64,000 nucleotides of DNA. Origin: Gammaproteobacteria bacterium (GTDB taxonomy: Bacteria > Pseudomonadota > Gammaproteobacteria > CAJXQU01). Under the pieces are notes generated by a model that was given only the letters and a program-made list of their open reading frames with translations, ran no database searches and had not been told where the DNA came from. Position numbers and translations under genes: made by a program. Location of the stretch: the NCBI GenBank assembly GCA_965238175.1, contig CBDEGZ010000003.1:3008001-3072000 (forward strand). The letters run 5' to 3'. Every line of letters starts with the position of its first letter. The stretch's first letter is position 1. This document shows, one piece after another, positions 56,695-61,549 of this stretch.

Positions 56695-57429
56695 ATGAGT
56701 CTGGCGCGAAATCCTTTTCTTAAACAATTGATCAGTAGTTTTTTTGATCTATTACCTATATTGCTGGTGGTTTCCGCGTTTCAACTGCTTGTGATCCGCC
56801 AGCCAATTCCTGATTTGGTCAGTCTAATATTCGGTACTTTACTGGTTATTATTGGCCTCACTTTTTTCGTCCAAGGATTGGAACAAGGACTCTTCCCGAT
56901 CGGTGAAGCCATGGCTTACGCCTTTGCAAAAAAAGGCAGCATTATCTGGTTATTAATCTTCGCTTTCTCGCTTGGTTTCGCAACTACAGTAGCAGAACCA
57001 GCACTCATTGCTGTCGGTGAAGAGGCTGCGAATGTCGCTGCAGAAGGCGGCATGATCGACAATACGGATGACTCAAGGAAAGACTATGCCTTTGGTTTAC
57101 GAATTACCGTTGCCTTCTCGGTGGGATTCGCGATCCTTCTCGGTGTTTTACGGATCCTAAAAGGCTGGCCACTACAAAACCTGATTATTCCTGGTTACGC
57201 AGGAATTTTGATAATGACATTTTTTGCACCACCAGAAATTGTCGGGATTGCATATGATTCAGGTGGTGTGACAACATCAACCATCACCGTTCCACTAGTC
57301 ACAGCATTAGGCGTCGGGCTCGCTTCCTCAATCAAAGGCCGTAATCCGATGACAGATGGTTTTGGCCTGATAGCAATTGCTTCGTTGACGCCGATTATCT
57401 TCGTTATGTGCTATGGATTGTTAATATGA
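56695..57429 (+). CDS. DUF1538 family membrane protein (copy 1)
   Basis: [45 protein letters not shown]. Confidence 0.88.
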
Positions 57430-58199
57430 CGGAGCATCTAATCGAATTATGGGCACTGTTCAGTCACTCGTTGTTAGCGACGACACGAGATATTTTGCCG
57501 ATTGTTGCAACCATTATTGGTTTTCAAATTCTCGTCATCCGAAAACCAATCAAAAACCCGAAAAAAATCGCGATTGGTTTTTTTTACGTTGTAATTGGTA
57601 TTGCGTTATTCCTCGAAGGGCTTGAAATGGCACTTTTCCCACTTGGAAAACTAATGGCCGCTCAGTTAACCAATCCAGAGTTTATTCAAGCCGGTGATAT
57701 CTTAAACTGGAAGGATTACACTTGGGTTTATATCTTCGCTTTTTGTATTGGTTTCTCGACAACCTTGGCCGAGCCTTCACTTCTGGCTGTTGCAATCAAA
57801 GCTCAGGAGATCTCGGGTGGCGCGATCAAATCCTGGCCTCTAAGGCTCACTGTCTCTACAGGTGTCGCATTCGGAATAGCACTCGGCTCTTTCAGAATCG
57901 TAAGCGGAACCGATCTCTATTTATATATTATTGTCGGTTATATCGTCGTCATTATCTTAACCATGTTTTCGTCGAAAATGATCCTTGGTTTAGCATTTGA
58001 CTCCGGAGGTGTAACTACCTCCACCGTCACCGTTCCGCTGGTCACAGCACTTGGTTTAGGCCTAGCATCAAATGTCCCAGATCGTAACCCATTACTCGAT
58101 GGTTTCGGCCTGATCGCCTTTGCCGGCCTGTTCGCAATTATTGCTGTTTTATCTTATGCCATGCTCGCTGATATGCTAGCAAAACATAAAAAATCATAA
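57426..58199 (+). CDS. DUF1538 family membrane protein (copy 2)
   Basis: [51 protein letters not shown] overlap with copy 1. Confidence 0.88.
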
Positions 58200-58212
58200 G
58201 GAGGATTTACTT

Positions 58213-58563
58213 ATGCGCTTTAAGTTAATCATAGTGTTTGTCGAAGACGACAAGACTGATCTGGTGCTAGACACCTCGCGAGAAGCCGGTGCTACTGGCG
58301 CAACGGTGATCAGCAATGCCAGAGGTGAAGGCATCAAACAATCGAAAACGTTTTTCGGCTTGACGCTAGAAACACAACGCGATGTTGTGCTGCTTTTAGT
58401 CGAGGAACATATGGCCAGACAAATTCTGGAAAAAATTTCTGATGTCGCCGAGTTTGATGAAAAACCCGGCACCGGCATTGCGTTTCAAATTGATGTCGAA
58501 GATGCGATTGGTGTACGCCATCAAGTCTGGGATCTCACCAAAGTTATTAAGGAGGAGTTATGA
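58213..58563 (+). CDS. PII-like signal transduction protein
   Basis: FKLIIVFV, AGATGATV..ARGEG, PGTGIAF.IDV..AIG; lacks the canonical GlnB T-loop tyrosine motif. Confidence 0.85.
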   Translation: MRFKLIIVFVEDDKTDLVLDTSREAGATGATVISNARGEGIKQSKTFFGLTLETQRDVVLLLVEEHMARQILEKISDVAEFDEKPGTGIAFQIDVEDAIGVRHQVWDLTKVIKEEL

Positions 58564-58964
58564 GCGATAACCCAATAGTTCGCGTTCGCGATGTAATGAA
58601 AACAGCCTTCATTACCATTGATGGTGTTGCCACAGTGGCAGAAGCTGTTTCAATGATGAAGCAAAATAAAACATCTGTACTGGTCGTCAACAAACGTTAT
58701 GACGATGATGAGTATGGACTGATCCTGGCTGGCCAAATTGCCCGCCACGTGCTCAGCAAGGATCGCCCACCAGGTCGCGTAAACGTTTATGAGATTATGC
58801 ACAAGCCGGTGATTTCAGTTCATCCGGATATGGATATTCGTCATTGTTCAAGACTGTTCGCACAGTATGATCTAATGCGCGCTCCTGTTATAGAAAACCG
58901 TGACATTATCGGCATGGTCAGTCCAATCTCATTGGTACTTGATGGTCTTTCAAAATTTAGTTAA
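58560..58964 (+). CDS. Stand-alone CBS-pair protein
   Basis: VRDVM...TV.EA...M, EYGLI, V.EIM.KP, APVIE...IIG.V. Confidence 0.88.
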
Positions 58965-61549
58965 TGACATCTGAACATACCCCTGCGATGCAGCAGTATC
59001 TTGGCTTTAAAGCCGAGTATCCTGACAAACTACTGTTTTTTCAAATGGGAGACTTTTATGAATTCTTTTTTGAAGATGCGCGGCGTGCAAATGAACTGTT
59101 AGGGCTTGCATTAACCAAACGCGGCAACTCGGCTGGCGAGCCTATTCCAATGGCGGGCATGCCAATGCATGCATCAGAAAATTATCTGGCCAAGTTGGTC
59201 GAAATCGGCGAGTCGATCGTCATTTGTGATCAAGTCGGTGATCCCGCGACTAGCAAAGGCCCGGTCGAACGCAAAATCACCCGCATCATCACACCGGGGA
59301 CGATAACCGACGAAGCCTTACTAAAAGAACGCCAGGATAATCTGCTATTAGCAATACATGAGCTTGATCAAAAAATTGGCCTCGCATGGTTAGATCTCAG
59401 TGGTGGTCGATTTCATGTTATGGAGATTTTTCAGCATTCGGATCGCAACGCAAATAAAGACAACAAACACGATGAATTGATCGCAGAATTGGAACGACTA
59501 CAACCTGCCGAAATTCTGATCAGTGAAGATTCCCCATTACTGGCAGCCTTAAAAAATCATAACTCTATTTCAACCATGTCGCCCTGGTATTTTGATCTAG
59601 ATAGCGCCACACGTCAGCTCAAAGAACATTTTGAAGTAACAGATTTAAAAGGCTACGGTTGTGATCAATTGCCTTCAACTATCTCGGCTGCGGGATGTCT
59701 TTTGCAATACACCCGCGAAACGCAACGCTCCTCGCTGCCACATCTGACCGAATTAAAACTTGAAACCCTCAGCGACACGATCACAATTGATGCAGCTAGC
59801 CGCCAGAACTTAGAAATTCTCAACAGTTTGTCAGGCGAACGTCGCCACAGCCTCGCACACTTGATCGACTCAGCGGTAACCGGTATGGGAAGTCGTATGT
59901 TATGTCGCTGGTTGCAAGCACCATTGCGAGATCATGCAACGATCAAATTTCGGCATCATGCCGTCGCCACCTTGATCGAAAATCAACACTATTCTGATCT
60001 ACAAGAAACACTACGCGCCATCGGCGACATGGAACGCATCACCACGCGTATTGCACTCAAATCTGCTCGACCAAGAGATCTCGCTCAACTTCGCTCATCA
60101 ATAGGTGCGTTGCCTTATATCAAAAAACATCTGGCCGAATTGGACAGTCCAAGACTACAACAACTTTCTGATCAGATTAACCAATTTCCCGAAATGCTTT
60201 CTCTACTTACAAATGCGATTATCGAAATGCCACCCGCACTCATTCGTGATGGTGGAATGATCGCAGAAGGCTATCACGCTGAATTGGATGAGTTACGAAC
60301 ACTCAGCAAAAATGCCAGCGACTATCTTGATCAACTTGAGATCCGCGAGCGCGAAAGCACTGGCATCCAAACGCTAAAAGTTGGCTACAACCGCGTGCAC
60401 GGTTATTACATTGAGATCAGCCGCCTGCAAAGCAATGACGTTCCAACCCATTATCATCGCCGGCAAACACTCAAAGCAACTGAACGCTTCATCACTCCAG
60501 AACTAAAAGAATATGAGGACAAAGTGCTTAGTGCGGGTGAAAAAGCATTGAAACTAGAGAAGGCACTCTATGCTGATCTACTCGATCAATTAACCAAACA
60601 CACACCCGAACTTCAATCAACCGGAGCCGCTATCGCAGAACTCGACGTGCTCGGAAGTTTTGCCGAACGTGCAGTGACTTTGGATCTCGCACAACCGGAT
60701 CTAAGTCAGACGAGCCAGATCAATATTGAAGCAGGTCGTCATCCAGTTGTTGAGCAAATTCAAGAAGAAAGTTTTATTCCCAATGATCTGATCATGAATG
60801 AAGATCGAAAAATGTTGATCATCACTGGTCCAAACATGGGTGGTAAATCCACCTACATGCGACAAATCGCACTGATTGTTTTGCTCGCCCACTGCGGTAG
60901 TTTTGTTCCAGCAAAATCTGCCGGCATAGGAAATATTGATCGCATTTTTACCCGCATTGGCGCCAGTGATGATCTAGCCTCTGGACGTTCAACCTTTATG
61001 GTCGAAATGATCGAAACGGCAAATATTCTCAACAATGCCACACAAAACTCGCTAGTCTTAATGGACGAAATCGGACGTGGCACCAGCACCTTCGATGGAC
61101 TTTCGCTAGCGTGGGCAAGCTCGATCCATTTACTTGAAAACATCGGCGCATGGACATTATTCGCTACGCATTATTTTGAAATGACCGCGATCCCAGAAAA
61201 ACATCCCTCCGCGATCAATGTACGCCTTGATGCGATCGAACACAAAGACAAACTAGTTTTCATGCACACCGTAAAAGATGGCCCAGCCAATCGCAGTTAC
61301 GGATTACAAGTCGCACAGCTGGCCGGTGTTCCAAAAGACGTGATCAAGCAAGCACGTGTTCGATTAAAACAATTAGAAAATCGTGAATCCACCATTATTC
61401 ATCCATTAGAGCAAAACGAACAACTTGAACTACTGCCCTCCACTGCCATGCTCGAACTGGCCGAAAAGATCAAAAATATAAACCCCGATGAATTAAGTCC
61501 GAAAGAAGCATTAGAAAAATTGTATGAGTTGAAGGGGTCGTTAGGGTGA
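58964..61549 (+). CDS. mutS: DNA mismatch repair protein MutS
   Basis: [45 protein letters not shown]. Confidence 0.98.

Follow-up and report, generated by a model that had tools for sequence, protein, structure and literature searches.

The 64,000-nt stretch of DNA analyzed here (the window) comes from a Gammaproteobacteria bacterium (assembly GCA_965238175.1, contig CBDEGZ010000003.1, forward-strand positions 3,008,001 to 3,072,000). The open reading frame (ORF) listing of the window includes five successive ORFs on the + strand at 56656–61549. The first four genes are closely packed within 56695–58964 and encode two paralogous DUF1538 membrane proteins (A and B), a PII-like protein, and a pair of CBS domains. 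The order A-B-PII-CBS is a widely recurring unit, and we consider it probable that it constitutes one operon for an UmpAB-type heterodimeric monovalent cation/proton antiporter together with two cytoplasmic sensors, the PII-like and CBS proteins, which would gate the antiporter. The features of the unit, in window coordinates, are:

56695..57429, + strand: umpA-like DUF1538 membrane subunit (A), 244 amino acids (aa); Pfam PF07556 and NCBIfam NF041627, start assigned by alignment
57426..58199, + strand: umpB-like DUF1538 membrane subunit (B), 257 aa; Pfam PF07556 and NCBIfam NF041628, alignment
58200..58212, + strand: 13-nt spacer with a GGAGG ribosome-binding site, preceding the PII-like gene; read from the sequence
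58213..58563, + strand: divergent PII-like protein, 116 aa, with a shortened T-loop region; Pfam P-II and subfamily alignment
58560..58964, + strand: stand-alone CBS-pair protein, 134 aa; Pfam CBS and solved relative 5nmu

Alignment with relatives places the start of A at ATG 56695 rather than at the upstream TTG 56656, and the start of B at ATG 57426 rather than at GTG 57408. The A and B genes overlap by ATGA (57426–57429). B ends with the stop codon TAA (58197–58199), followed by the spacer ggaggatttactt, which includes the Shine-Dalgarno-like GGAGG, and by the ATG of the PII-like gene at 58213. The PII-like and CBS genes again overlap by ATGA (58560–58563). The coordinates of a first-pass annotation of this DNA agree with the alignment of relatives, and the junctions that it described (ATGA overlaps, a 13-bp gap, and TAATG at the end of the CBS gene) each match the sequence exactly. 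Tight junctions are also found elsewhere. Among 82 complete loci used for junction statistics, the stop of PII and the start of CBS overlap or abut in 72, with a 4-nt overlap in 66 of them; A and B overlap or abut in 67, and the median gap between B and PII is 9 nt. The PII/CBS overlaps suggest that these two proteins are co-translated in fixed proportion.

A scan of one genome per species yielded at least 587 DUF1538 stretches. The 80 named loci closest to A (64–76% identity, and thus one subfamily) are found in several phyla and carry names including Methylococcaceae, Cycloclasticus, Sedimenticola, Thiomicrorhabdus, Colwellia, Hahella, cable bacteria, Desulfobacula, Nitrospirota, and Magnetococcales, among others. 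The full A-B-PII-CBS order is present in 70 of these 80 loci, and a contig end cuts another five. The first-pass annotation had made its proposal depend on the four genes co-occurring elsewhere, which they do. One of the loci (L092) lies on a contig labelled “uncultured Halobacteria archaeon”; its A-B-PII-CBS unit is gammaproteobacterial-like, with 72% identity to the A subunit of the window, and could represent a binning error or a recent transfer.

In a second sample, comprising 400 genomes drawn evenly from the class, DUF1538 was found in 122 genomes and the PII-like subfamily in 110 (profile A5, E <= 1e-15). Both were present in 108 genomes, DUF1538 only in 14, the PII-like subfamily only in 2, and neither in 276. 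Because related genomes are not independent, these co-occurrence counts are given without a P-value. The order A-B-PII-CBS is found in 25 of the 29 best loci of this sample. The 14 DUF1538-only genomes either belong to a distant fused clade with a more divergent PII partner or have weak or fragmentary matches. Within this clade, weaker PII-like matches lie beside the DUF1538 gene in genomes G064, G065, G155, G267, and G330. Its loci (L169–L178 and L044, from G330, G267, G064, G155, G065, and, as a second locus, G038) encode a fused double-DUF1538 protein of ~520–660 aa, and one or two divergent PII-like ORFs lie downstream of it.

The arrangement of the unit varies in other ways. In some genomes A and B are fused into one protein of ~500 aa, with PII and CBS kept downstream. 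One genome has the order PII-CBS-AB, and in G205 a 1.4-kb insertion separates B from PII. In genome G225 (locus L154), a 321-aa ORF at 4009–4974 (− strand), divergent and upstream of the fused transporter gene, resembles a tandem universal-stress-protein by eye. Clustering of the flanking genes revealed no fifth conserved gene, the most frequent extra gene occurring in 19 of the 80 loci; the commonest flank genes, nadC-like and histidine-kinase genes, reflect local synteny. A Kef-type gene (Na_H_Exchanger+TrkA, with TrkA_N and TrkA_C) adjoins the module in 7 of the 80 loci by clustering, including L100, and also comes after A-B-PII in L076 and L123, both of which are without CBS.

Both membrane subunits match Pfam PF07556 (DUF1538; gathering threshold 22.6) along almost the entire profile, A with 239.5 bits (E 3e-71, profile positions 1–211 of 211) and B with 224.2 bits (E 1.4e-66, positions 1–210 of 211). 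The family comprises 3013 representatives at 50% identity (E <= 0.001). A and B are 47% identical to each other, and their alignment contains both of the motifs that the first-pass annotation had reported as shared by two paralogous membrane proteins, TT(V/L)AEP(A/S)L and A(Y/F)DSGGVTTST(I/V)TVPLVTALG. In B, the loop that follows the second helix is longer and the C-terminus is basic and hydrophilic; A has a longer mid-protein loop. Comparison of the N-terminal and C-terminal halves of A with hhalign detected no internal repeat (probability 0.7%).

The best NCBIfam match of A is UmpA (NF041627, 372.5 bits, below the equivalog cut-off of 490), and that of B is UmpB (NF041628, 309 bits, below the equivalog cut-off of 500). 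The overlapping paralogous genes are therefore each closest to a different subunit model, as expected of a two-component system. In the search of relatives, UmpA and UmpB matches are paired in 13 of 14 matching genomes, and G038 has four such matches. The UmpA/UmpB equivalog cut-off was not reached in any of the 400 class genomes sampled (best score 408) or in any genome of the order around the best match. These models bear the names “Na,Li,K/H(+) antiporter subunit UmpA” and “UmpB” and stem from the work of Meng et al. 2017, in which E. coli KNabc is reported to be rescued when umpA and umpB, two overlapping genes of Halomonas zhaodongensis, are expressed together (PMC5484666). The paper also describes co-immunoprecipitation of UmpA and UmpB and pH-dependent Na+(Li+,K+)/H+ antiport in everted vesicles with UmpAB (PMC5484666). 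The statement in the first-pass annotation that DUF1538 had no established function was therefore outdated, UmpAB having been described as a Na+(Li+,K+)/H+ antiporter in 2017 (PMC5484666). Its proposal of a heteromeric ion or solute transporter with an unknown substrate survives in part: homology to UmpAB argues for a heteromeric ion transporter, and the substrate is no longer wholly obscure.

An AlphaFold model of A (predicted local distance difference test score, pLDDT, 86.5; predicted template modeling score, pTM, 0.76) places both motifs at helix breaks, between helices 83–99 and 102–117 and between helices 180–192 and 198–212. The description of these motifs as helix-breaking in the first-pass annotation is thus borne out by the predicted helix discontinuities. 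A second model, that of the natural A-B fusion protein from G225 (L154), was made with 59 diverse homologues and has a pLDDT of 92.1 and a pTM of 0.91. Among these fused homologues, E100-P101, E356-P357, and D432 are invariant and D176 is nearly so; in other words, the Glu of the AEP motif is invariant in both halves, and the Asp of the DSGG motif is invariant in the C-terminal half and nearly so in the N-terminal half. Foldseek returned no convincing solved match for subunit A (best E 0.19, template modeling score, TM, <= 0.27) or for the fused AB protein (best E 0.021, TM <= 0.22). The best results of VIA-align wide were Z 6.6 over 61 residues for subunit A and Z 6.1 over 102 residues for fused AB. 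These fold-search values sit in the noise range that the tool describes for helical proteins. A search of the ESM Atlas, from which the exact sequence is absent, showed no neighboring family beyond DUF1538. The high-confidence models of the DUF1538 proteins thus match no solved fold recognizably, which in itself does not prove the fold to be novel.

The identity of the transported substrate is the point at which one alternative has to be considered. The DUF1538 pair could carry something other than monovalent cations, such as bicarbonate or another anion or solute, with the antiport seen in E. coli as a side activity and the PII-like and CBS proteins still acting as regulators. PII-family partners classically accompany nitrogen and carbon transporters, as in GlnK-AmtB and SbtB-SbtA, and chemolithoautotrophs or methanotrophs account for many of the 80 named loci. 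The predicted DUF1538 fold matches no solved antiporter, and the functional evidence consists of one heterologous complementation and vesicle study (PMC5484666). However, the module is also found in the heterotrophs Colwellia, Thalassotalea, and Hahella, and the membrane Glu and Asp residues that are invariant across the family suit the binding of cations or protons. In addition, the Kef-type neighbor hints at a setting of cation homeostasis, and the profile of the PII-like subfamily does not reach the solved SbtB chains at E <= 0.01. On balance we regard a different substrate as rather unlikely, although it is the most credible of the alternatives considered here.

The third gene of the unit matches Pfam P-II (PF00543) with 46.9 bits against a cut-off of 25, and no NCBIfam family was matched by its product. 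The same genome encodes canonical glnB and glnK-amtB, whose P-II scores are 116 and 113 bits, so the PII-like protein is an additional, specialized copy. In a multiple alignment it is 26–28% identical to GlnB and GlnK of its own genome and lacks 5 of their residues in the T-loop/beta3 region, and BLASTP gave no pairwise alignment with either of these proteins. It does not present the full T-loop with Y51 and the contact residues that characterize canonical GlnB/GlnK. The term “non-canonical PII” in the first-pass annotation is therefore apt.

With the subfamily profile, the best matches of known structure are ordinary PII proteins from archaea and bacteria (only E 4e-5), and in this sequence search none of the 17 solved matches at E <= 0.01 is a chain named SbtB. 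The most conserved positions of the subfamily are GATGxT, A36-R37-G38-x-G40, T46-F47-x-G49-L50 (in the T-loop), and L62-V63-E64-E65-H66, which give the subfamily its signature RGxG...TFxGL, VEEH. The subfamily includes at least 8000 clusters at 90% identity, for which the source names are nothing more specific than “P-II family nitrogen regulator,” “transcriptional regulator,” or “hypothetical protein.” Tandem-PII proteins of 230–245 aa with Clostridiales names were also observed.

The fourth gene matches Pfam CBS (PF00571) with 65.1 bits in two stretches, which represent tandem CBS motifs. Among solved sequences, the CBS domain of cyanobacterial CBS-CP12 comes closest (5nmu, E 4.7e-23, residues 6–125 aligned), and the CBS domains of MgtE are also matched (E 4e-4). 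Cyclic di-AMP was considered as a ligand and is unlikely, rather than excluded, in this organism, since no DAC-domain gene was found in the genome, which is 97.7% complete.

A physical connection between the PII-like protein and the membrane pair is seen in one clade. A search with the C-terminal part of the protein P0165 retrieved 131 clusters of ~650–670 aa, and PF07556 and PF00543 are both precomputed in 119 of the 120 fusion clusters listed. Their architecture is DUF1538-DUF1538-linker-PII in a single chain of ~656 aa. In P0165 itself, Pfam identifies two DUF1538 domains and P-II, with clean read-through across a hydrophilic linker. Where named, the fusion clusters are from Arcobacteraceae, Campylobacterota, or Epsilonproteobacteria; several are from contigs of 2.5–2.8 Mb, and the sources label the protein “DUF1538 family protein” or “nitrogen regulatory protein PII.” Fusions of B with PII and of PII with CBS were also examined and set aside as evidence, because all were singletons and several contained frameshift-like linker junk. 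The triple fusion, in contrast, is a robust case. It is our strongest argument for an action of the PII-like protein on the transporter itself, and it supports the link between PII and transporter put forward in the first-pass annotation.

The fusion also bears on a different role for the membrane pair, namely that of a sensor whose state would be relayed by the PII-like and CBS proteins to other cellular targets, with no gating of transport. PII proteins commonly have several targets, which would suit such a relay, and a covalent PII-transporter fusion held across a whole clade instead favors action on the transporter. No further conserved neighbor that could serve as a target was identified around the module, where the top extra gene is limited to 19 of the 80 loci. 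UmpAB is active without the PII-like and CBS proteins (PMC5484666), which is compatible with regulators directed elsewhere. We consider a relay of this kind improbable.

The reading we prefer, that of a cation/proton antiporter gated by two cytoplasmic sensors, has its basis in homology, gene order, phyletic co-occurrence, and the natural PII fusion. Its mechanism could be as follows. A and B would each contribute two discontinuous helices, with the invariant Glu (AEP) and Asp (DSGG) as the likely ion- or proton-binding carboxylates. Translational coupling would keep the PII-like and CBS proteins at a fixed ratio. A trimer of the PII-like protein, probably by way of its conserved T-loop, and a dimer of the CBS protein may then bind to the transporter from the cytoplasmic side and turn cation/proton exchange on or off according to the small molecule bound. 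The signal would most plausibly be adenine nucleotides or the energy state of the cell. The action of GlnK on AmtB, of SbtB on SbtA, and of the CBS domains of MgtE and OpuA would be analogous. The binding geometry, the ligand, the sign of regulation, and a substrate shared with Halomonas UmpAB are inferred, as are nucleotide binding by the PII-like and CBS proteins and the gating of transport.

Several observations weigh against this interpretation. Both subunits of the window score under the NCBIfam equivalog cut-offs, as given above. The PII-like protein has, in the alignment, no equivalents of the canonical residues Y51, Q39, K58, K90, and R101/R103, of which we take Y51 to be the modification site and Q39, K58, K90, R101, and R103 to be contacts for ATP/2-oxoglutarate; nucleotide binding by this protein is accordingly not assured. 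CBS is not a constant companion. Three of the 80 loci (L076, L114, and L123) have A-B-PII with room for a CBS gene yet none present, and the distant fused clade (L169–L178 and L044) has PII-like genes only. Two further loci (L095 and L109) have A alone. In G153 (L167/L168) and G377 (L163/L164), A is on one contig and B-PII-CBS on another; such a split of the umpA-like gene from umpB-PII-CBS is unusual for a heterodimeric transporter. Antiport function is known from one heterologous study, of the Halomonas pair alone, and that pair was active in E. coli from a 4.2-kb clone stopping after umpB (PMC5484666). Since the clone ends after umpB and still works, PII and CBS are not required for basal activity, and the regulators are more likely to be brakes or tuners than essential subunits. 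Neither PII nor CBS is mentioned in the UmpAB paper (0 occurrences; PMC5484666).

It is possible, with chances that we put a little short of even, that the DUF1538 pair assembles with its dedicated PII-like protein and the CBS protein into a ligand-gated transport complex of a kind not described before. Its membrane fold would be an unsolved one, and its dual sensor would combine a CBS dimer with a short-T-loop PII that has an invariant signature of its own in place of the canonical ATP/2-oxoglutarate residues. In a literature search that left most subscription journals outside its scope, no paper linked PII or CBS to DUF1538, and the 2017 UmpAB paper was the sole functional study of DUF1538. 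The transporter family thus has a single characterized member. PII-gated and CBS-gated transporters are known kinds, whereas the pairing of DUF1538 with a dedicated PII-like protein and a stand-alone CBS protein was absent from the literature searched.

Although PII proteins rank with the most widespread signal integrators, few transporters are known as their targets. If the proposal is correct, it would add a new class of PII target, one found in about a quarter to a third of the class genomes sampled and in several other phyla. The PII-like subfamily is a dedicated one, nearly always encoded with DUF1538 and fused to it in one phylum, and databases still label it “nitrogen regulator.” The system is well defined, occurs very widely, and lends itself to experiments; its regulator is mis-annotated and its fold unsolved. 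A characterized complex would correct a mass annotation, add a PII target, and in all likelihood provide a transporter structure that is new. Cable bacteria are one example in which UmpAB homologues have already been cited as genes of salinity adaptation, in passages that leave the two regulators unmentioned (PMC12093952).

The module is flanked in the window by two genes that do not belong to the conserved unit:

58964..61549, + strand: mutS, neighbor outside the conserved module; TIGR01070, 1138 bits
54670..56613, − strand: htpG, divergent upstream neighbor; translation by eye and phmmer matches between relatives

The fifth gene encodes all five MutS domains (Pfam), and its junction with the CBS gene is TAATG (58962–58966), in which the last base of the CBS stop is the first base of the mutS start. 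The order htpG(−)/A-B-PII-CBS/mutS is found in 6 of 6 other genomes of the same genus, with gaps between CBS and mutS of 73, 18, 3, 18, 2, and 145 nt. A crude scan of 56400–59700 found neither a promoter-like site on the + strand nor a convincing terminator, so that transcripts of this strain could continue into mutS. The single shared base, the lack of a terminator-like site between CBS and mutS in that scan, and the constant order within the genus would be in keeping with a functional coupling of the operon to mismatch repair, brought about by its co-translation with mutS. Outside the genus the picture is different: neither mutS nor htpG lies within 6 kb in any of the 80 loci from other taxa, and in the other families of the class that were examined A-B-PII-CBS recurs without htpG or an adjoining mutS. 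The gap to mutS also varies within the genus, from 2 to 145 nt. This lack of conservation already largely refutes a coupling to mismatch repair, which we regard as very improbable. A functional link of the module to mutS is thus not supported; of the “coupled to mutS” proposed in the first-pass annotation, the stop/start overlap is real, and the adjacency is a feature of one genus.

Two other observations were made in the vicinity. Just 3′ of mutS, the overlapping ORFs 61763–62137 and 62095–62814 (+ strand) resemble a frameshift-split transposase when their translations are inspected by eye. The 169-aa ORF at 54139–54648 contains a GGQ motif and ends in a basic tail, features reminiscent of ArfB-type peptidyl-tRNA hydrolase/ribosome rescue factors.

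Among known systems, the closest to the membrane pair is UmpAB of Halomonas zhaodongensis. Like umpA and umpB, the genes of the window are overlapping, paired DUF1538 genes, and UmpA is described as having the longer loop and UmpB a longer loop and a hydrophilic C-terminus, as do A and B here (PMC5484666). The window pair differs in scoring below the equivalog cut-offs and in that the conserved unit consists of four genes.

The regulatory part of the unit recalls three kinds of regulated transporter. As in GlnK-AmtB, of which this genome has its own copy, a PII-family gene adjoins the gene of the transporter that it would regulate. Unlike GlnK, to which it has the low identity noted above, the PII-like protein of the window has a T-loop region 5 residues shorter and is without Y51 and the canonical ATP/2-oxoglutarate contacts, and the transporter is unrelated to AmtB. 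In cyanobacteria, SbtB regulates the Na+-coupled transporter SbtA in response to adenine nucleotides, and there too a non-canonical PII-like gene adjoins a transporter gene. The window differs from SbtB-SbtA in that its subfamily profile reached no solved SbtB (E <= 0.01), its DUF1538 models resemble no solved transporter, and its module has an additional CBS protein. Finally, the CBS pair is of the usual kind found in CBS-regulated transporters (MgtE, OpuA, and ClC) and in CBS-CP12. In contrast to the CBS domains of MgtE, OpuA, and ClC, it is a separate 134-aa protein, translationally coupled to the PII-like protein and unfused to the transporter.

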